A stretch of DNA of 64,000 nucleotides, from the NCBI GenBank assembly GCA_965223665.1, contig OZ245011.1, forward strand, positions 3,968,001 to 4,032,000, read 5' to 3'. Position 1 is the first letter of the stretch. Each line of letters begins with the position of its first letter. Shown one piece after another: positions 5,721 through 49,311 of the stretch. Both the position numbers and the translations under genes were made by a program. A model generated the notes under the pieces. It had not been told where the DNA came from, made no database searches, and saw only the letters and a list, made by a program, of their open reading frames with translations. Source of the stretch: Nitrospinaceae bacterium (GTDB lineage: Bacteria; Nitrospinota; Nitrospinia; Nitrospinales; Nitrospinaceae).

Positions 5721-8360
5721 ATGGAAGTAATCACAACACATTTTAACGCAGATTTTGACTGTATGGCATCTATGGTGGCCGTTCAGAAATTGTACCCAGA
5801 TGCGAAAATGGTGTTTTCTGGATCAATGGAAAAGGCTTTGCAAAATTTCTTAAAGGCTTTTGGATATCCCTTTCAATTCACCAAAATTAAAGAAGTGGAC
5901 TTTGAAAAAATCACACTTCTTGTTGTGGTGGATACTCAAGATCCCAACCGGATTGGTCCATTTAAATCGCTGTTGAATAAAAAAAATATACAGGTACATG
6001 TTTATGATCATCATTTAGATGTGGCAAACCCAATTCAGGCTGAGAAAAAATTTATCATGAAGCGAGGTTCTACGACGACCATGCTCTGTGAAATGCTTGC
6101 TGAAAAGGGTATCAATTTTTCTAAAACTGAAAACACACTTATGGCTTTGGGGATCTATCAGGATACACATTCATTAATTTCGCCTTCTACTTGCCCAGAG
6201 GATTTTTTTGCGGTGGGTCAGTTGGTAAAAAATGGAGTCGATTTAAACGTTGTTGCAGACTTCGTCGAAGCAAAGCTGAATAGAGATCAGTTAGAGGTTA
6301 TGAACATTTTGATTGGAAATTTAGAAATCCAAAACTTTAATGGTGTTGATATTGCAATATCTACTGCGACCTTGGAAAATTACATTGGAGATTTAGCAGT
6401 AGTTGTCTATCGGTTAATGCAATTAGAAAACTTGGGCATAATGTTTGCTGTGCTACGTTTGGAATCACGAATATATTTAATTGGCCGTAGTAGATCTGAT
6501 GAGGTGAATGTAGGGCATGTTTTAAGACACTTTGGAGGTGGAGGGCATCCCAATGCGGCATCGGCTAGTATTAAAGAATTAACCTTGATTGAAACCCGGG
6601 AAAAACTTAATTCAATTCTATCTGAGGAGGTCAAGCCCTTAGAGTTGGTAAAAAACATTATGCATGCTCCCGTAATTACTGCTTCCGCAAAAAACTCTGT
6701 GGAGGAAGTTGAGAAAAAGATGACTAAGTTTAATCTCAATTCTTTGCCGGTGGTCGTTGGGAAAAAACCGGTTGGATTGATAACTAGACAAATTGTGGAG
6801 AAAGCCCTTCATCATAAATTGGCAAAAGAGCCTGTCGAAGAAATTATGATCCATGAAATCACTGTCACAACTCCAGATTCTTATTTCAAATCAATTGTGC
6901 CAATTATAGTTGAGGAAAAACAGAAAGTAATTCCAGTTGTTCATCCAAAAGACGGAAAACTTTTGGGTGTTGTTAGCCGCGGGGATTTGTTAAGAATCTT
7001 ACATAAAGATTTGGCAAGTTATTCAACGGGTTCATACGCACCTTTGCTTCAAGAGAAGGAGTATTTAGTAAAGAACCTAAAAAGTTTAATGACGGAACGT
7101 ATGCCAAGAGAAATTATGAATTTATTGGCAGTAACTGTGAAAACAGCGAATAAAATGGATTGCAAAGTTTATGCTGTAGGTGGTTTTGTGAGGGATTTGT
7201 TGTTAAGAGTTGAGAATTTGGACATTGATATTGTTGTTGAGGGGAATGGTGTTGAGTTTGCTGCGGCTTTGGGGGATAAACTTAAAGGTCGAGTAATTTC
7301 CCATAAAAAATTTGGAACCTCTGTAGTTGTTCTGCCTAATGGATATAAAATCGATGTAGCTACGGCTAGAGTTGAGTATTATAAACATCCTGCTGCCTTA
7401 CCCACTGTTGAAAAAAGTTCAATAAAATCGGATTTATTTCGTAGAGACTTTACTTTTAACAGTTTAGCTATCAAATTGAATGGTTCAGATGCATTTAACC
7501 TGATTGATTTTTTTAATGGCCAACGTGATTTAAAAGAAAAGGTAGTGAGAGTTTTGCATAATTTGAGTTTTGTTGAAGATCCATGCCGGGCCTTTAGAGC
7601 AGTTCGTTTTGAACAGAGATTGAAGTTTTCAATTGGTAAGCAAACAGAATCATTTATAAAAAGGGCTGTGAAAAAAAAATTATTTGATAGTCTAAGCGGC
7701 CATCGTTTATTTAATGAGTTGGTTTTGATTTTGAAGGAAAAGAAAGTTGTGGAATGTGCCCGTCGAATGAATGAGCTTGGTCTTTTAAAAAGTGTTCTTC
7801 CTCAATTAGCTAAAGGATCTAAACACTTTGAAAACTTAGAAAAAATTCAAGGGATTTTATCTTTGTCTAATGTGGTATCTTTAATTCCTGCCTCGGAAAT
7901 ATGGTGGGTGAACTTTTTAGGGTTAACTTCTAACCTGGATTCAAAAGCCAGTTCTGAATTAATAGATCGATTAAAAATGACCGGAAAAATTCTTCGCAGA
8001 TTTAAAAAAGATAGAGAGGATTATCCCAAATCCTTAAAAGCATTAAAAAAATTTAAAAATCCTCAGCCTAGCGATATTTATAATTTGTTAAGGGAGGTTT
8101 CCCGAGAGTCTATCTTATTTTTAATGGCTATCTCTGGCAATGAAGCAATTAATAAACAGCTACTATTGTACATCACCCAATATGATAGTTCTGCTGATCT
8201 GTTTTTGGATGGAGAGGATTTAAAGAATATGGGAATTAAACCCGGCCCTCTTTTTAAACAAGTTTTTAAAGTATTGAGAGATGCAAAGCTTGATGGAGTT
8301 GTCCGAACTCGTGAAGATGAGATGGCTTTGGTCAATGAAAAATTTATAGAGACACCTTGA
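5721..8360 (+). CDS. cca: tRNA nucleotidyltransferase (CCA- or A-adding type) with DHH, DHHA1 and CBS domains
   Basis: HFNADFD, YDHH, GGGGHPNAASA, CBS pair, AVGGFVRD, DIDIVV, DLFRRDFTFN, EDPCR. Confidence 0.9.
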   Translation: MEVITTHFNADFDCMASMVAVQKLYPDAKMVFSGSMEKALQNFLKAFGYPFQFTKIKEVDFEKITLLVVVDTQDPNRIGPFKSLLNKKNIQVHVYDHHLDVANPIQAEKKFIMKRGSTTTMLCEMLAEKGINFSKTENTLMALGIYQDTHSLISPSTCPEDFFAVGQLVKNGVDLNVVADFVEAKLNRDQLEVMNILIGNLEIQNFNGVDIAISTATLENYIGDLAVVVYRLMQLENLGIMFAVLRLESRIYLIGRSRSDEVNVGHVLRHFGGGGHPNAASASIKELTLIETREKLNSILSEEVKPLELVKNIMHAPVITASAKNSVEEVEKKMTKFNLNSLPVVVGKKPVGLITRQIVEKALHHKLAKEPVEEIMIHEITVTTPDSYFKSIVPIIVEEKQKVIPVVHPKDGKLLGVVSRGDLLRILHKDLASYSTGSYAPLLQEKEYLVKNLKSLMTERMPREIMNLLAVTVKTANKMDCKVYAVGGFVRDLLLRVENLDIDIVVEGNGVEFAAALGDKLKGRVISHKKFGTSVVVLPNGYKIDVATARVEYYKHPAALPTVEKSSIKSDLFRRDFTFNSLAIKLNGSDAFNLIDFFNGQRDLKEKVVRVLHNLSFVEDPCRAFRAVRFEQRLKFSIGKQTESFIKRAVKKKLFDSLSGHRLFNELVLILKEKKVVECARRMNELGLLKSVLPQLAKGSKHFENLEKIQGILSLSNVVSLIPASEIWWVNFLGLTSNLDSKASSELIDRLKMTGKILRRFKKDREDYPKSLKALKKFKNPQPSDIYNLLREVSRESILFLMAISGNEAINKQLLLYITQYDSSADLFLDGEDLKNMGIKPGPLFKQVFKVLRDAKLDGVVRTREDEMALVNEKFIETP

Positions 8361-8455
8361 GTCCCATGAAAATTGTTGGATGAAATTATGTTATACTTCG
8401 TCCAAAATTTTTTAAATTGAAAATAATTTTCGCCATATTTTGAAAGGGCTTTGTT

Positions 8456-8989
8456 GTGGCAAGTGTGGAATATTTGATTAAACAGTTTTTAAGTCCTGAT
8501 AAGAGGACTCTGGATCTAAGTAATTATAACTTGGGGGATAAAGGATGTACTGCTTTAACCAATTCAAAACAAATAAAATCCGGTAAATTGCGTATTTTAC
8601 GTCTTCCAAATAACAATATAAGCGATGAAGGTGTAAAGGAACTCGCGGATTGCGAGTTTTTTAATAATTTAAGAGAATTAGATTTATACGGAAACGTAAT
8701 TAGTGACGATGGTGTGAAAGCTATTGCCCTATCTCCTCATTTTGAAAAGCTAAAAAAATTAGGTCTTTATGGGAACCTTATTGAGGACGAAGGCGCAATT
8801 GCCCTTGCAGAATCCGATGTGTTAACAAAAGTAACCCATCTTTACTTAACCGCTAATAGAATTCGTAAAGAAGGAATTGATGCTTTAAAAAATGCAAAAT
8901 GTCGTACACGTTTTTGCCACTTATATGTTGATGACCTTTCGGATTTTGCTTATGAAGATGATTTGGATGATGAAGAGGATGATGATTGA
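8456..8989 (+). CDS. Leucine-rich repeat protein with acidic C-terminal tail
   Basis: 27-aa repeats LxxLxLxxNxIxDxGxxxLA; tail EDDLDDEEDDD. Confidence 0.85.
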   Translation: MASVEYLIKQFLSPDKRTLDLSNYNLGDKGCTALTNSKQIKSGKLRILRLPNNNISDEGVKELADCEFFNNLRELDLYGNVISDDGVKAIALSPHFEKLKKLGLYGNLIEDEGAIALAESDVLTKVTHLYLTANRIRKEGIDALKNAKCRTRFCHLYVDDLSDFAYEDDLDDEEDDD

Positions 8990-8992
8990 TTC

Positions 8993-9574
8993 ATGATTGC
9001 CAATCAAATGTTTAAAATTATTTTTATTTTTACCCTGGGATTGATAGCTGTTTCAAACTCTTCCGAGGCGCAGTTTTTTGAAAATAAAGATTATTTTGAT
9101 GATTCAAAAATTAATTATAATCAGATTTTTCAACAGGGTCTTTCTGCCAACGGAAAATCATTGAATCTATCCGGAAAAAAAATTGGAGACGAGGGCGTGA
9201 AGGCTTTAGTTTCTTATGCCCCTTTGGAAAAGGTAACCAAAATGGATTTGCGTTACAACAAGATTTCAGAGAAGGGGGCTAAGTTATTAGCGGATTGTAA
9301 AGAGTTGAGAAAGATAAAAAAATTGGATTTAAGACATAATTATTTTTTAGATGCAGGAGCTATTATGCTGGCTAATTCTAGTGGGTTACCTAATCTTGAA
9401 AAGTTAAACTTGAGTTTTAATGAAATTCGAGATCAAGGAGCCCTGGCATTTGCCAAATCCAAAAACTTTCCTAAACTTAGAAAGCTGGATTTAGCTGGAA
9501 ATTTTCTAGCGGATGAAACTAAGCAAACTCTAAAAAAAGACTTAAGTCACCTCAAGTCTCTTAAACTATATTAG
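8993..9574 (+). CDS. Exported leucine-rich repeat protein
   Basis: Signal peptide (SSEA/Q); 27-aa LRRs, e.g. LEKLNLSFNEIRDQGALAFA. Confidence 0.85.
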   Translation: MIANQMFKIIFIFTLGLIAVSNSSEAQFFENKDYFDDSKINYNQIFQQGLSANGKSLNLSGKKIGDEGVKALVSYAPLEKVTKMDLRYNKISEKGAKLLADCKELRKIKKLDLRHNYFLDAGAIMLANSSGLPNLEKLNLSFNEIRDQGALAFAKSKNFPKLRKLDLAGNFLADETKQTLKKDLSHLKSLKLY

Positions 9575-29040: not shown

Positions 29041-29313
29041 ATGATTCGAATGGCTCAAAGAAAAAAATGGATATTGGCGATAGTATTGGCATTGTCAGTA
29101 TTTCTCATGCCTGTCACCCATAGTTTGGCAATGCAATCCAATATGGAAATGGAAAATTGTTCTCCTATTACAAAGTGCGCATCTTGTTCCGTTTCTATTT
29201 CATCTTTTGACCAAATAGGCGATAGCCTTATGCTATCCTTGGATTATATTATTCATCCCTATATCAGTTCTACATTTGTAATTTCAGAACCGCTATACCA
29301 CCCTCCCAAATAA
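29041..29313 (+). CDS. Secreted Cys/Met-rich small protein ending HPPK; CutF/CruR(DUF2946)-like leader peptide candidate
   Basis: Signal peptide (SLA/M), MQSNMEME, CX5CX2C, C-terminal EPLYHPPK; AGGGG RBS. Confidence 0.7.
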   Translation: MIRMAQRKKWILAIVLALSVFLMPVTHSLAMQSNMEMENCSPITKCASCSVSISSFDQIGDSLMLSLDYIIHPYISSTFVISEPLYHPPK

Positions 29314-29423
29314 CTCCTTTTTTTATTATTAATTAACTAATTACAATTTTCCGGTTATTTCGAGTAGCTATTACTCAAAATATATTGGAAAGATGCGTCT
29401 TCGTGAAGAAAAGGAGAAAATTC
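29314..29423 (+). promoter_or_regulatory. Structured intergenic leader with anti-SD able to sequester the downstream RBS
   Basis: ctccttttttt (29314-29324) pairs with aagaaaaggag (29406-29416), 11 bp with one G-U; internal hairpin gagta-gctat-tactc. Confidence 0.6.
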
Positions 29424-30506
29424 ATGAAAATGGACAGATTCGTAAATGGCAGGGTCGTTCCCTACTTGGTATTTCTAGTATTTTTTTTAACAGGTTGTAA
29501 ATTAGAACAGCGTAGCGAGATCTTTCATTTAAGGGGATCTTATAACTATCAATTTTACAAACATCATCCCAAAGATTATACGCTTACCACCGTCGCTCAT
29601 TGGGCTCATGGAAAAATCAGCGATATTTTATTAGAAGCCCCCCCAGACACGATAAAAGCGGACGAAGATTTTTTCAATAAAAGTATATGGTTTTTAAAGC
29701 ATCCATCCAGAGTGGAACCCCACCAAGACTATGTTGCCCCGGTGTTTGCCCGAATGGCCTGGAAGGCCATTCGCGTGGTAGATTGGACCCACCAATTACA
29801 CGAGCAGCTTTACGATATTATGACTGATCCTCGAATTCCCCCAGAGGACAAGAAAAAATGGATCGATCGGTCCGTACAATATTATCTAAGTGAACCTTCC
29901 ATAGCATTTAGTCCAGCTCCTTTTGAAGAAGTCATAATGGATCGAGTTAAATTGATGAGCCAACCTTGGTTCAAAGCATTTCGGACGAAATACCCACGTA
30001 CTACAGAGTTATTTTGGGCCTTCCATTGGTGGCATCCTGCAGTTTATGAAGCACAAATTCTGAATCAAAATTTGAACGATCAAAAACGAGCTATTAAGGC
30101 AATTGACAAACTTTTCCTAAAGGATCCGATAATTAGACCACCCCAGCGTATGCTTTTATCGCGTGAGGTGATGCCTAGATTTAGCCAGCTTACCCCTGAG
30201 GCAGCAAATATTTTTGATAATTTGCATATGTTTCACGGCATAGTTTATGACATTTTAGCTTCCTCCTTGGTCAAAGATAAAAAAAAAGAAATATACAGGA
30301 TGATTGAATTAATGACGGTTCGCCCAGGCGATGGAAAACTTGCAGCTAACTTTTCCACTCCTCATCCTGATATGGACCCACTTCAATATTATGATTGGCT
30401 TCAAGATTCTGGAGGAGAGATGGCTCGAATCATGGGTCATTCCCATAAACAGCATAAACCTTTACATATGAAAACCCAAAAGCATATGAAGGAGGTGCAG
30501 CCATGA
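29424..30506 (+). CDS. Uncharacterised His-rich lipoprotein with internal duplication, putative metal-binding protein
   Basis: AAGGAG RBS; lipobox FLTGC; HWAH...DWTHQLHEQLYDI and HWWH...DNLHMFHGIVYDI; His/Met-rich tail. Confidence 0.78.
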   Translation: MKMDRFVNGRVVPYLVFLVFFLTGCKLEQRSEIFHLRGSYNYQFYKHHPKDYTLTTVAHWAHGKISDILLEAPPDTIKADEDFFNKSIWFLKHPSRVEPHQDYVAPVFARMAWKAIRVVDWTHQLHEQLYDIMTDPRIPPEDKKKWIDRSVQYYLSEPSIAFSPAPFEEVIMDRVKLMSQPWFKAFRTKYPRTTELFWAFHWWHPAVYEAQILNQNLNDQKRAIKAIDKLFLKDPIIRPPQRMLLSREVMPRFSQLTPEAANIFDNLHMFHGIVYDILASSLVKDKKKEIYRMIELMTVRPGDGKLAANFSTPHPDMDPLQYYDWLQDSGGEMARIMGHSHKQHKPLHMKTQKHMKEVQP

Positions 30507-31273
30507 AAAGATCGTATTTGTGGTTGATAGTGATTACCTGCTTCACATTATTAATAATAGGATTCCCTTTTTTAGTTTTTGCTGCAGACCACCGAAATTT
30601 AGAAGAAAACCATCCTACCCGAATCGAAGATGCTTATCCAATTTCCTTTCGATCCTTTGAATTCCAAACCAGAATTGGATATGAAAGTGAAACGGATGTA
30701 GGCAAAGATACAGGTGTTTTTGAGGGGGAATTGAAATGGGGATTTTTGAAAAATGCCCATTTAGTTTTAGGTTTGCCCATTAATTTTGGGAGCAACTTAG
30801 AGCCAGATTTAAACGGAGACGTTCGTTTTGAGAGTTTATACAATTTTAATGTAGAAACTTTAACCCTTCCGGCCTTCGCTTTTAAAGTTGATTTTTTACT
30901 CCCCTTTGGGAATGACTCTCAAGGAATCGATTTAGATTTGGTTGCAATTGCCACAAAGGGGATTGGCCAAAGCCGATTTCATTTCAATGGAATATACAGA
31001 GTTAATGGTGGAAGAGGTCCGGGAGAACGGAGGCATTTATATGTTTTTGGAATAGCGTTTGACCACCCAATAGATTTAGATCATTTATTCACAGCAGATT
31101 TTTTTGTGGAGCAAGCAGAGAGGAAGGGTCAGGAACCCTTTTATAGTTTTGTAATAGGAATGCGAAAGCAAGTAAACCCCTGGTCTGTATTAACTATGGG
31201 AGTTGGGCACGCTTTTGGAAACGATCGTGCAGCAGATTTTATTGCTACTCTTGGTTTTCAGGTAAACTTTTAA
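30503..31273 (+). CDS. Putative outer-membrane beta-barrel / transporter (MetA-pathway porin-like)
   Basis: Signal peptide, alternating amphipathic strands, C-terminal ATLGFQVNF ending in Phe; ATGA overlap with the upstream gene. Confidence 0.72.
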   Translation: MKRSYLWLIVITCFTLLIIGFPFLVFAADHRNLEENHPTRIEDAYPISFRSFEFQTRIGYESETDVGKDTGVFEGELKWGFLKNAHLVLGLPINFGSNLEPDLNGDVRFESLYNFNVETLTLPAFAFKVDFLLPFGNDSQGIDLDLVAIATKGIGQSRFHFNGIYRVNGGRGPGERRHLYVFGIAFDHPIDLDHLFTADFFVEQAERKGQEPFYSFVIGMRKQVNPWSVLTMGVGHAFGNDRAADFIATLGFQVNF

Positions 31274-33230: not shown

Positions 33231-34670
33231 CTATTCAGGTGAAGTTTCAGGATCGGATGGTTTTTGGAGTTTCTCGGAGGAATTTGAATCATCATCTTCC
33301 TCAGATTGAGAAACAAGGGCTGCAGCTTTTTTCTGAGCTTCTATTTCCCGCTGTTTTTCTTCCATAGCTTTTTTTTCTGCCTGCCATTCAATAACCATTT
33401 GGGGCTTAATCTTTATTGCGACCGGAATATTAACCGTACTGCAGGAACGGACACAAACGCCGCATCCAGTACATGTTTTTTTATTAATAATGGGCTTTTG
33501 ATCCTTTTGAGTAATGACACCAGGGATGGGGCAATCGATTATGCATTGTTGGCAAAAGGTATCACCATAAGCCTGACATTTCTTTTTATCAAGAATGGCA
33601 TAGCCCATTTTTGCTTCTTCTCTTCCCCCGGGGACTGGTAGTAAGGCACCATCTGGGCAAGCAGGAATACAGGGTAAATCATTACACATTACACAAGGAA
33701 CTTTGACTGGGTCGATGTAGGGCGTGTCCATAATAAGGAAGCCGTGTTTCTTAGGAACTCTCTGGATAGCATCTTTCGGACAGGCATTAATGCATTTGTC
33801 ACAACGAGTGCAGGCCTGTAAAAAAGCTCTTTCAGAAATAGCTCCAGGAGGTCTTAAAAGCGGAATTCGTTTTGTGATTTTATCTACGGTTTGATTAACT
33901 TTATCAATTTTACCCTGGATTTTGTCCACCGTAGGTTTCGCAAAAAAATGGACGCTCTTACGCATTAGATTGCGCCGGTTCATCTCAACATCTTCGTCAC
34001 TCCTTTCTTCCTCAGACTCTTCATCGTGATTTTCGTTAGAGTTTGAAGAAGGGATTTCTTGAGTTTGTTCAATAGAGGTTTCTATTTCAGAATCTGGGGT
34101 CTTAGTATCGGAGGATTGTGAATCCAGGTTATTTTTTGCAGCTAGTTTTTCAGCCTTAATTCTTTTCTTTTCTAATTTTCGAGCTTCAATTTCTTCAGGG
34201 TCTTCTAGGGTAGGGTAAAACCGTTCTACCACTCGTCTAAAAAAACCGCGCTTGGGTTTTTCAGTTTCAATAATTTCTGTTTTGGCCTCATTGCCAGTCT
34301 CTTCTAAAGCTTCATTCGATTCAGAGAGATTTTCATTTAAACTATCATTCTGTTCGTTTAATTCTTCTTCCTCTTTAAGGCGTATTTTTTTTCTTTTAAT
34401 TTTTTTTCTTTCTTTTTCTTTTCTGTCTGATTCGTCGGCATATTCTTTGAGTTGATTTAAACTTCCAAATAATCCACGACGAGATATCTCTTGCTGCTCA
34501 ATAGGTTTTTTTAGGGAAGCTTTTAATTTGTGCAAACTTAAAAGATCTTTGTCATCAGAAGAATGGTTTCCTTTTTGATCTTCCGAAATATGATCTTCAT
34601 TCGTTTTTATTTTTGGAGGAAGTTTTTTTCCTTTGAATTTATCTTTATTTAGTTTGTATCGAAGTGACAT
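33231..34670 (-). CDS. NapG/MauM-type four-cluster ferredoxin with long charged N-terminal extension
   Basis: LRPPGA, CTRCDKCINACP, CVMCNDLPCIPACP, CQAY..CQQCIIDCP, CTGCGVCVRSC. Confidence 0.85.
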   Translation of the reverse strand: MSLRYKLNKDKFKGKKLPPKIKTNEDHISEDQKGNHSSDDKDLLSLHKLKASLKKPIEQQEISRRGLFGSLNQLKEYADESDRKEKERKKIKRKKIRLKEEEELNEQNDSLNENLSESNEALEETGNEAKTEIIETEKPKRGFFRRVVERFYPTLEDPEEIEARKLEKKRIKAEKLAAKNNLDSQSSDTKTPDSEIETSIEQTQEIPSSNSNENHDEESEEERSDEDVEMNRRNLMRKSVHFFAKPTVDKIQGKIDKVNQTVDKITKRIPLLRPPGAISERAFLQACTRCDKCINACPKDAIQRVPKKHGFLIMDTPYIDPVKVPCVMCNDLPCIPACPDGALLPVPGGREEAKMGYAILDKKKCQAYGDTFCQQCIIDCPIPGVITQKDQKPIINKKTCTGCGVCVRSCSTVNIPVAIKIKPQMVIEWQAEKKAMEEKQREIEAQKKAAALVSQSEEDDDSNSSEKLQKPSDPETSPE

Positions 34671-47475: not shown

Positions 47476-48306
47476 ATGACTGAAACGAGTGAAGTATCCA
47501 AAAACCAAGATCCTATACTAGTGAAATTTGGAGAAACTGGAACCCTTGAAGAATGTAAAGAACAAAGAATTTCTTTACAGTTAGCCCGGGGTCGAGTGTA
47601 TGACATATTGTCAAGTGCATTCAGTTATCCTTGGAATCGGAAATTTTTTAGACCTAAGTCGCTTTTAGAACCCTTAGATGTAGTCTTATTAGATGAAGAT
47701 GATTGGAAAACTGCGAAGGAAATAATTAATCGATTCGGTAAATACCTACCCAATATGGCTTTAAAGCAAGTTCAACAAGAGTATGTAAAGGTTTTTGGTC
47801 ATGCTGTTTCTCAGGAATGTCCCCCGTATGAAATGCAGTATGGAACAGAGGGGGGAATCCAATCACAAACTGATGTGTTAATCCAGTTGGGGGGGTTTTA
47901 CGAAACCTTTGGATTTGAATTTCCTAAAAGTCGAGGAAAAGAACGAGTAGATCATCTTTCTGTTGAATTAGCATTCCTTGCTTACCTATGTTTTAGAGAA
48001 GCCTATGGAATAAGTAATGGACATGATGAAAAGAAAATATCCATTGTCCGACAAAGTTCGAAAAAATTTATAAGAAATCATGTGGGACGGTGGACACCTT
48101 TGTTTTGTATTTTTACTTCCCGTAAGGCGGAACGGGGGCTTTATAAAGATTTAGTAGACCTGTTAGCTTTGTTTGTGAAAAATGAATGCGCCTTGTTGGA
48201 TGTTAAGCCGATAAAAGTCGAAGAACCAGAATATCGTTCGTTGTCTTACAGTATGGAAAATGATCTTGTTGCTAATGCTCCAGCTGAGTGCGAACCGATA
48301 AAATAA
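47476..48306 (+). CDS. TorD/DmsD-family molybdoenzyme chaperone
   Basis: EYVKVFGH, CPPYE, FYETFG, ERVDHLSVELAFL, FIRNHVGRW. Confidence 0.88.
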   Translation: MTETSEVSKNQDPILVKFGETGTLEECKEQRISLQLARGRVYDILSSAFSYPWNRKFFRPKSLLEPLDVVLLDEDDWKTAKEIINRFGKYLPNMALKQVQQEYVKVFGHAVSQECPPYEMQYGTEGGIQSQTDVLIQLGGFYETFGFEFPKSRGKERVDHLSVELAFLAYLCFREAYGISNGHDEKKISIVRQSSKKFIRNHVGRWTPLFCIFTSRKAERGLYKDLVDLLALFVKNECALLDVKPIKVEEPEYRSLSYSMENDLVANAPAECEPIK

Positions 48307-48360
48307 GCTATCTGCTACAACCCTCTAGTAATTTTTACCCACCAAATACGGGAATATAAT

Positions 48361-49311
48361 GTGTCGTCTCGAAACCTTTCAGTCTTAGTAGGGTTATTGT
48401 TATTTTGTTTGCCCTTGTCCAGTTTTGCTGTCTCTATAAACGCTGTTAAGGTGGACGGAGAAGTGCCTCTGGATCCTTCAAATGTTTTTTGGTCCAATTA
48501 TGGTCCTACCAAAAATCTTCATGTAATTATTGATCTTAATCCCCAAATGATCACCAATCCAATGTGGCCTAATCCTGCGACGAAGTGGGTTTCAGTCCAA
48601 GCGGCCGTTAATGAAAAGGAAATTGCGATTCGATTAGAATGGGTAGACCCCACTCGTAACGATATTATGGTTCAATCGCAACAATACCGCGACCAGGCCG
48701 CAATTATGTTTCCTGTGGATCAAAGTGGACCTGTTCCACCTTTTACAATGGGAGGTGAGGAAGAGCCGGTAAATATTTGGCAATGGAAAGCCACATGGAA
48801 TAAAGAGGCCGCTGGTAAGGGAGGGAATGAATCAATGCAAGATGTTGAAGATCAGTATCAATATATGGCCATGGGATCTGGAAGTTACTATATCTATGAG
48901 CCTAGCGGAAAATTAAGTTTGTCGGACAAGGAAAAATCAGGAAAAATATCTGATAGAAGTACCTATATTGATGATGGAATGGGCAAAAATGAAGGCGTTT
49001 ATAACCCGGGTCGAGCAACCCACAATATATTATCTGATGCAACCCTACGTCGATCTCCTGTGGAAGATTTAAATGCAGAAGGGTTTAGCACCCTTACCAC
49101 ACAAGCGCATCAAGATGTTGATGGAAATGGCAATTGGAACAATAATCGGTGGTCTGTTGTTTTTAAAAGAGATAGGGTAACCAAAGATAAGAATGATACA
49201 CAATTCATATTTGAAAAAACTCCCATAGCTTTTGCAATTTGGAATGGAAATAATAAAGAAAGAAATGGACAAAAAGCCTTAACTCATTTCCATGAGCTTG
49301 TTTATAAATAA
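48361..49311 (+). CDS. Exported EbdC-like heme b (DOMON/EB_dh) protein; NxrC-type gamma-subunit candidate
   Basis: Sec signal; IRLEWVDPT, DQAAIMFP, FTMG, VNIWQWKA, EGFSTLT, WSVVFKR, AFAIWNG..KERNGQK. Confidence 0.85.
   Translation: MSSRNLSVLVGLLLFCLPLSSFAVSINAVKVDGEVPLDPSNVFWSNYGPTKNLHVIIDLNPQMITNPMWPNPATKWVSVQAAVNEKEIAIRLEWVDPTRNDIMVQSQQYRDQAAIMFPVDQSGPVPPFTMGGEEEPVNIWQWKATWNKEAAGKGGNESMQDVEDQYQYMAMGSGSYYIYEPSGKLSLSDKEKSGKISDRSTYIDDGMGKNEGVYNPGRATHNILSDATLRRSPVEDLNAEGFSTLTTQAHQDVDGNGNWNNNRWSVVFKRDRVTKDKNDTQFIFEKTPIAFAIWNGNNKERNGQKALTHFHELVYK

Follow-up and report, generated by a model that had tools for sequence, protein, structure and literature searches.

A predicted periplasmic metal-binding protein, most likely for copper, encoded with its own outer-membrane channel in a Nitrospinaceae bacterium

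The stretch of 64,000 nucleotides (nt) analysed here (the window; contig OZ245011.1 of a Nitrospinaceae bacterium, positions 3,968,001 to 4,032,000) carries two overlapping genes, one for a lipoprotein with regularly spaced histidine motifs (hereafter, the His-protein) and one for an outer-membrane beta-barrel (the barrel). On balance, we consider it probable that the two encode a new periplasmic metal-binding protein, with copper as the most likely metal, and a dedicated outer-membrane channel, in a PcoA/PcoB-like arrangement; that is, the pair probably handles copper at the cell envelope. This reading is directly supported by the duplication within the His-protein, the conservation of its histidines as a unit, its helical fold, the type of the barrel, the pairing and fusion of the two proteins and the copper and other metal genes that surround the pair in related genomes; from these observations we infer the identity of the metal, the geometry of its site, contact between the two proteins and the direction of flow. 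The passage of copper across the outer membrane and its holding in the periplasm are still poorly understood, and if the His core binds copper, the pair would represent a new component of bacterial copper homeostasis and a new metal-site architecture.

The duplicated histidine protein

The His-protein is composed of two homologous halves, each with two HxxH motifs, and a tail rich in histidine and methionine. Its features and those of the barrel gene are the following (window coordinates):

29412..29416 (+): Shine-Dalgarno-like AGGAG, 7 nt ahead of ATG 29424
29424..30506 (+): gene for the His-protein, ATG start, 360 amino acids (aa), beginning MKMDRF
29424..29498 (+): signal peptide with lipobox LTGC (Cys25), sequence ...FFLTGC
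29538..29948 (+): repeat half 1, residues ~39-175, with H59xxH62 and D120-W-x-H123-x-x-H126-E-x-x-Y-D131
29598..29609 (+): HxxH motif 1, HWAH, H59/H62, in model helix 49-71
29790..29801 (+): HxxH motif 2, HQLH, H123/H126, in model helix 113-134
29958..30323 (+): repeat half 2, residues ~179-300, with H201xxH204 and D265-N-x-H268-x-x-H271-x-x-x-Y-D276
30024..30035 (+): HxxH motif 3, HWWH, H201/H204, in model helix 191-213
30225..30236 (+): HxxH motif 4, HMFH, H268/H271, in model helix 258-279
30432..30503 (+): disordered His/Met-rich C-terminal tail, residues 337-360, with 5 His and 3 Met
30490..30506 (+): AGGAGG (30490-30495) and ATGA stop/start overlap (30503-30506)
30503..31273 (+): barrel gene, 256 aa, signal peptide 1-27, ending ...GFQVNF with a C-terminal Phe
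30584..30643 (+): conserved N-terminal segment of the mature barrel, residues 28-47, ADHRNLEENHPTRIEDAYPI

Comparison of the halves using BLASTP (residues 21-175 against 176-340) gave 33 identities over 120 positions (28%; E = 3e-8 in the search space of the pair), and a profile-profile comparison of the two halves of a 34-sequence alignment gave a probability of 96.3% and an E value of 1.8e-9 over 115 columns. The BLASTP alignment pairs HWAH with HWWH and DWTHQLHEQLYDI with DNLHMFHGIVYDI, that is, the same motif pairs from which a sequence-only reading of this DNA, made without database searches, had proposed two homologous halves. Judged by these comparisons, the internal duplication of the His-protein is beyond chance. 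The eight regularly spaced histidines of that reading (59/62, 123/126, 201/204 and 268/271), followed by a His/Met tail, are also borne out.

The same reading had named a lack of histidine conservation among the findings that would refute it. In all 34 aligned relatives, the most divergent at 42% identity, the eight histidines are unchanged, as are E98, D120, W121, E127, Y130, D131, W202, W203, D265 and Y275; in more distant members, the histidines are held or lost en bloc. When key positions (59, 62, 123, 126, 127 and 131 in the first half; 201, 204, 268, 271, 272 and 276 in the second) were compared across 58 distant representatives, three states could be distinguished:

State 1, the window's class: H H H H E D in the first half and H H H H G D in the second
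State 2, the majority of the 58: D H H H R D and H Q H H D D, that is, six histidines, one plus two per half
State 3, about 12 of the 58: the histidines swapped together for Arg, Gln or Glu

Partial loss is rare among these representatives. Position 59 is Asp in 34 of the 58 and position 204 is Gln in 42; H123 and H126 are each kept in 44, H268 in 52 and H271 in 45; and D131 (57), D276 (56), D265 (56), N266 (57) and Y154 (58) are near-universal. Such block-wise loss of histidines argues for one functional centre or site.

The members in state 3 form a His-poor subclass of about a dozen clusters (P0158, P0218, P0225, P0236, P0249, P0250, P0257, P0258, P0273, P0289, P0295 and others) that retains D131, D276, W121 and W202 but has nearly all its histidines replaced and therefore presumably has a different ligand or function. 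Interrupted copies were also seen. In Hymenobacter sp. UV11 (L047, 7914-9266), the His-protein is split into two open reading frames (ORFs; 7914-8345 and 8376-9266), both of which match the profile and are followed by an intact barrel; a frameshift or pseudogene formation may account for the split. A single in-frame TGA also occurs within the His-protein profile match in each of two genomes that belong to one genus of the window's order (G089:C76:2548-3540 and G090:C1:518943-519941); the gene may be broken or read through, or the TGA may be an artefact of assembly.

The AlphaFold2 (AF2) model of the His-protein, built from the 34-sequence alignment, is all-helical (predicted local distance difference test (pLDDT) 86.2, predicted template modelling score 0.83), with each HxxH in the middle of one of the four long helices listed above and with pLDDT below 50 at residues 340-360 of the tail. 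This confident model upholds the helical part of the helical bundle that had been predicted from the letters. Searches of known structures with the model returned no convincing match: the best E value was 0.55 with Foldseek against the PDB, and the best Z score was 4.7, with none reaching 5, in VIA-align against 48,161 representative chains, which is low for a helical protein; this lack of a fold match is no proof of a new fold. Identities as a hemerythrin, a ferritin-like protein or a DinB-like protein were considered and are unsupported, with no Pfam match at E <= 1.

At its N terminus, the signal peptide conforms to the lipobox pattern [LVI][ASTVI][GAS]C, the FLTGC of the earlier reading can be read directly from the sequence, and Cys25 is the sole cysteine in the 360 residues. 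Among 97 homologues parsed from 120 listed, 24 have a lipobox-like motif, and lipidation therefore belongs to the window's clade rather than to the family as a whole. In the same 97 sequences, methionine makes up 17.5% (short forms) to 19.7% (long forms) of the tails compared with 4.0% of the body, and histidine makes up 14.1% of the short tails, which are of the window's type, compared with 4.7% of the body; cysteine is absent from all tails. Disordered stretches of this kind, rich in methionine and histidine and free of cysteine, are typical of periplasmic copper and silver proteins. As for the start of the gene, the longest possible ORF opens earlier, at TTG 29385; a GGAG precedes the start codon of the His-protein in the closely related locus L001, as it does here.

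The outer-membrane barrel and its pairing with the His-protein

The ATGA overlap couples the His-protein gene to the barrel gene, with 7 nt between AGGAGG and the barrel ATG; both the coupling and the terminal phenylalanine of the barrel had been picked out correctly from the letters. Each of the two genes is single-copy in the genome, and a scan for promoters and terminators gave counts no different from those of shuffled sequence.

The AF2 model of the barrel has 12 strands (pLDDT 80.2). In VIA-align, it was closest to FapF (Z 20.2, root-mean-square deviation (rmsd) 2.9, 218 residues aligned; Foldseek E = 7.8e-8) and to the COG4313 channel 4rl8 (Z 18.8, rmsd 3.0, 211 aligned), followed by autotransporter barrels and KdgM/NanC (Z 16-17.4); PcoB (7pge) gave Z 11.0 (rmsd 4.3, 178 aligned). 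On the strength of this model, the barrel is a 12-stranded FapF/COG4313-type channel, and the dedicated porin of the sequence-only reading stands as far as the barrel is concerned, the word porin being better replaced by this type of channel.

Ahead of strand 1 lies the best-conserved stretch of the barrel family (residues 28-47), in which A28, D29, H30, N32, L33, E34, P38, E42, D43, A44, Y45 and I47 are invariant in 20 of 20 barrels and which is retained in the fused distant forms described below; pLDDT falls below 50 at residues 23-44. In the solved COG4313 channel, about 14 N-terminal residues fold inside the lumen (PMC4493636). By analogy, the segment may occlude the lumen or contact the partner protein. 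The lumen of the window's barrel is polar by strand parity, with 12 acidic residues, 8 basic residues and 4 histidines as a rough estimate.

The two genes travel together. In the window's class (the best 80 of 126 genome loci that encode a relative), the barrel, as recognized by a barrel profile, lies directly downstream of the His-protein gene in 74; five of the six exceptions are at or near a contig end, and in the sixth (L049) an HMA/ATPase gene occupies the position. For a distant six-His class, the best 80 of at least 566 metagenome loci were used: 62 have the barrel immediately before the His-protein gene and 4 encode a fusion (together 66 of 80), and 12 of the 14 exceptions start less than 200 nt from a contig end; the pair has thus been kept with its gene order reversed. 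Fusions, with the barrel at the N terminus and the His domain at the C terminus joined by a Pro-rich linker, account for about 14-16 of 150 representative clusters. The window's barrel matches the N-terminal barrel of one of them (P0171) with an hhalign probability of 99.4% (E = 3.3e-21), and the barrels of P0171 and P0176 score 25.5 and 23.3 bits against PF13557 (Phenol_MetA_deg), above its cut-off of 22. Because the order in the fusions is opposite to the gene order in the window, they cannot stem from a slip in gene calling across the ATGA overlap. Pairwise distances of the two proteins are correlated (r = 0.895 over 129 pairs, a value reached in 0 of 500 permutations; 0.76 and 0.83 within the classes), which indicates co-inheritance only, given that linked genes share a history. 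Taken together, adjacency, fusion and this correlation answer the question of co-occurrence raised by the earlier reading: the gene pairing is obligate.

Family, gene neighbourhoods and the window

A word-indexed search recovered 315 relatives of the His-protein at E <= 1e-3, and an exhaustive search yielded 289 representative clusters (50% identity), of which 161 had E <= 1e-10. Record titles place the family in Nitrospinota, Nitrospirota, Planctomycetota, Cyanobacteriota, Bacteroidota, Verrucomicrobiota, Alphaproteobacteria and others. Pfam contains no family that matches the His-protein or the barrel at E <= 1, NCBIfam gave just one 13-bit match to a lipoprotein model with a cut-off of 50 bits, and PDB sequence searches with profiles of both alignments returned zero chains at E <= 10. 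The ESM Atlas yielded unnamed hypothetical clusters only (scores 0.92-0.93; recognition 1665, under the 2300 typical of most known families). A plasmid collection gave three matches, and both genes are labelled 'hypothetical protein' by PGAP on a Methylobacterium fujisawaense plasmid; among ten clusters examined, the only names other than 'hypothetical' are 'transporter', for a fused form, and 'cytochrome c family', for P0237. A literature search, whose coverage did not extend to subscription journals, found no paper on the family. The sequence-only reading, which had recognized no characterized family, was correct in this respect. Thus, a family that is widespread (289 clusters, 126 genome loci and at least 566 distant-class metagenome loci) is nameless in the libraries searched, and if our reading is true, it would provide an annotation for many 'hypothetical proteins' in copper-resistance islands.

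Evidence for a metal comes from the genes around the pair. For 79 related genome loci, we grouped the ORFs lying up to 5 kb from the pair by BLAST and searched Pfam with two representatives of each group, which gave the following families:

P1B-type ATPase with HMA: 22 of 79 loci
Histidine kinase: 16 of 79 loci
DUF326: 14 of 79 loci
Response regulator: 13 of 79 loci
DUF305: 12 of 79 loci
RND pump: 9 of 79 loci
Multicopper oxidase: 9 of 79 loci
CusB-like HlyD adaptor: 5 of 79 loci
CsoR: 5 of 79 loci

At least one copper or metal family occurs within this distance in 42 of the 79 loci, and a Pfam scan of the 146 flanking genes showed that a metal-related gene immediately adjoins the pair in 24 (DUF326 in 8, DUF305 in 7, ATPase/HMA in 5, CsoR in 3, multicopper oxidase in 2, and cupredoxin and TRASH in 1 each), on both sides in two loci. 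In three Methylobacterium loci, csoR lies directly upstream on the same strand. Thirteen of the 23 neighbouring ATPases carry transmembrane motifs that we take to be of the Cu(I) type, and one carries motifs that we take to be of the Zn type. DUF326 appears alongside copper storage in the literature, and DUF305 is the family of the copper-binding CopM (PMC4335983). The idea of a metal function gains support from these copper-gene neighbourhoods.

Within the window, the neighbours of the pair are secDF, genes for radical-SAM proteins, a gene for a CT398-like protein and aspS. The pair is patchy across the phylum (8 of 120 genomes; 7 of the 57 of good quality), and an integrase (a tyrosine recombinase of the phage family) lies directly downstream of it in two Nitrospinota loci (L003, 4183-4995; L007, 9845-10693); this patchy spread together with the adjoining integrase suggests that the pair is accessory and mobile. 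The pair occurs in nitrite oxidizers, the metal economy of which matters to the nitrogen cycle.

A candidate third gene lies upstream of the pair:

29041..29313 (+): 90 aa, secreted, with a hydrophobic signal-like N terminus, 110 nt upstream of the lipoprotein gene

After the signal-like segment, its product carries Met/Cys/His motifs (MEMENCS..C..C...HPP). In a tblastn search, L001 (80% aa identity) and L002 (34%) had the ORF at the same place, shortly before the pair, and the remaining 78 loci gave no match. Differences from L001 fall by codon position as 13/4/23, a pattern that fits coding sequence. No Pfam family scored above its cut-off, and a word search found no database homologue. Judging by its sequence and position, the ORF may add to the module a third component that is specific to this clade.

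Three further observations concern other parts of the window. Adjacent genes at 47476-49308 (+) match Nitrate_red_del (NarJ/NxrD-like chaperone) and EB_dh (NxrC-like, ethylbenzene-dehydrogenase gamma-like), which is consistent with a nitrite oxidizer from the Nitrospinaceae, the lineage that the record titles of the closest loci give. Two adjacent genes at 8456-9574 (+) encode small proteins of 177 and 193 aa built from LRR_6-type leucine-rich repeats, a domain uncommon in free-living bacteria. Finally, a gene at 33231-34670 (-) encodes a protein of 479 aa with a low-complexity N-terminal half rich in Lys, Glu and Ser, followed by 4Fe-4S dicluster domains.

Copper handling, its alternatives and known systems

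On the basis of these observations, we envision a self-contained two-gene envelope module that would handle a transition metal, most likely copper. The first gene would supply a periplasmic protein, lipid-anchored in the window's clade, with a fold derived from a duplicated helical unit, in which four HxxH helices may contribute eight histidines (six in most relatives) together with Asp and Glu to one or two metal sites, and a floppy Met/His-rich tail may capture ions. The second gene would supply a 12-stranded channel with a polar lumen and an acidic, histidine-containing N-terminal segment, through which the metal may pass between the periplasm and the outside. Because the module is found in copper-stress islands in most lineages, tolerance (that is, buffering and outer-membrane passage) is the likelier role. 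We hold with low confidence the further claim that the His-protein founds an unrecognized fold with a pseudo-symmetric binuclear copper centre of six histidines (eight in the window's clade), has an obligate channel of its own and represents an unnamed copper system in lineages of many phyla.

Several points weigh against copper handling. The neighbourhood evidence divides: the check for copper and heavy-metal genes that the sequence-only reading had proposed was positive in the related loci and negative in the window and its closest relatives, given that the 64-kb window contains no copper gene, that the ten closest loci (L001-L010, Nitrospinota/Nitrospirota) have no metal-gene cluster within 5 kb and that the sole clear Cu-ATPase of the genome is about 2.8 Mb distant. 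Such a cluster is also missing from 37 of the 79 related loci, and the context of the distant class is one of heavy metals but less specific to copper (P-type ATPase in 11 of 77 loci, RND in 7 of 77, and an ArsM-like methyltransferase with a low-molecular-weight phosphatase in 4 of 77). His-rich sites would equally suit Zn, Ni or Fe, and a passive barrel alone cannot drive efflux. Of the 27 long distant members that were scanned, five carry a fused cytochrome c, DUF2231 or PQQ-type propeller domain, which hints at redox chemistry over mere binding and leaves room for a redox enzyme. Moreover, COG4313 and FapF barrels carry hydrophobic molecules or unfolded polypeptide and not ions (PMC4493636 for COG4313).

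The fusions also count in favour of the leading alternative, which we regard as rather unlikely: that the His-protein is a metalloenzyme with a pseudo-symmetric 2 x (H + HxxH) binuclear redox centre (type-3-like copper or di-iron) that would oxidize or reduce a small molecule, or Cu(I), arriving through the COG4313-type channel. The family-wide core of six histidines, arranged as 1+2 / 1+2 on four helices, would suit such a centre, as the count of six matches that of coupled binuclear copper sites. The fusion partners (cytochrome c in P0237, DUF2231 membrane domains in P0163 and P0248, and the propeller in P0221) and a DUF2231 gene that adjoins the pair in L046 point the same way, as does the implication of COG4313 channels in the uptake of hydrophobic or aromatic compounds (PMC4493636). 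However, the fusions are few, Pfam matches to tyrosinase, hemerythrin and ferritin-like families are absent at E <= 1, Met/His tails are typical of ion capture, and the neighbourhoods are resistance islands (CsoR, RND, DUF326 and DUF305) rather than catabolic operons.

The bare surroundings of the pair in the window's clade would be explained if, in these nitrite oxidizers, the pair imported scarce copper or another metal through the barrel and the lipoprotein trapped it for periplasmic enzymes, a role that we consider unlikely. The lipid anchor of the His-protein and its short tail, rich in histidine (a harder ligand) in place of a long Met-rich one, would be compatible with acquisition, as would the inward conduction of Cu(II) that has been argued for PcoB (PMC9210255). 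However, the patchy spread and the integrase beside the pair give it the look of an accessory rather than a core nutritional system, a linked regulator or inner-membrane importer is absent, and other lineages place the pair behind csoR or beside exporters. We consider it very improbable that a FapF/autotransporter-like barrel threads the His-protein or its tail outward to bind metal outside the cell: the best matches of the barrel are FapF and autotransporter barrels, and the fused forms run from barrel through Pro-rich linker to His domain in an order resembling that of inverse autotransporters, but the two ends of a 12-stranded barrel lie in the periplasm if the chain does not thread back, the His domain, a compact helical fold of 300 residues, would make a poor passenger, genes for secretion partners do not recur around the pair, and the COG4313 channel is an equally close match.

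Returning to copper handling as the favoured role, we compared the pair with known systems. Its logic (that is, a periplasmic copper protein with an outer-membrane barrel) is known; the protein family and its fold are unmatched. Type-3 copper proteins (tyrosinase and hemocyanin) use six histidines, as 1+2 and 1+2, from helix pairs, and the His-protein resembles them in this count and in the relation of its helix pairs by duplication; it differs in having HxxH rather than HxxxH and, in the window's class, eight histidines. No Pfam match to these proteins was found at E <= 1 and such chains are absent from the rows of the fold search, a missing match that does not exclude the fold.

The copper-tolerance proteins CopM (DUF305) and Csp (DUF326) are likewise helical bundles, and both families are frequent neighbours of the pair. 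Csp cores are lined with cysteine, whereas the mature His-protein is, apart from its lipidation site, free of it. The His-protein matches neither PF03713 (DUF305) nor PF03860 (DUF326) at E <= 1, true DUF305 genes are its separate neighbours, and, unlike CopM and Csp, it spans about 300 residues, is internally duplicated and invariably has a barrel as its partner. CopM, a His/Met protein that binds copper, is encoded together with CopRS (PMC4335983).

The barrel shares 12 strands and a segment before strand 1 with the COG4313/Phenol_MetA_deg channel Pput2725 (PDB 4rl8; PMC4493636) and with FapF. Fused homologues of the window's barrel score above the cut-off of PF13557, whereas a Pfam search with the window's own barrel returned nothing at E <= 1. 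In contrast to COG4313 channels and FapF, its lumen is polar and charged, its N-terminal segment has conserved Asp, Glu and His, and both the partner protein and the surrounding genes suggest metal ions in preference to hydrophobic compounds or amyloid subunits.

The closest parallel in logic is PcoA/PcoB (CopA/CopB), from which the present pair differs as follows: the partner is a helical, His-lined protein in place of a multicopper oxidase; it is the periplasmic protein, and not the barrel, that bears the Met/His-rich stretch; the barrel has no Pfam match to CopB (PF05275) at E <= 1 and a low score to PcoB itself; and a multicopper oxidase lies within 5 kb in just the 9 of 79 loci listed above, with none in the window. 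In PMC12509749 and PMC9210255, PcoB is described as an outer-membrane barrel that depends on periplasmic PcoA and requires a His/Met-rich disordered region for Cu resistance, and the second of these presents its direction of transport as disputed. What the two systems have in common is a periplasmic copper protein co-encoded with a barrel that never occurs without its partner, a disordered region rich in histidine and methionine that PcoB needs and that has its counterpart in the tail of the His-protein, and a setting in copper-stress regulons.

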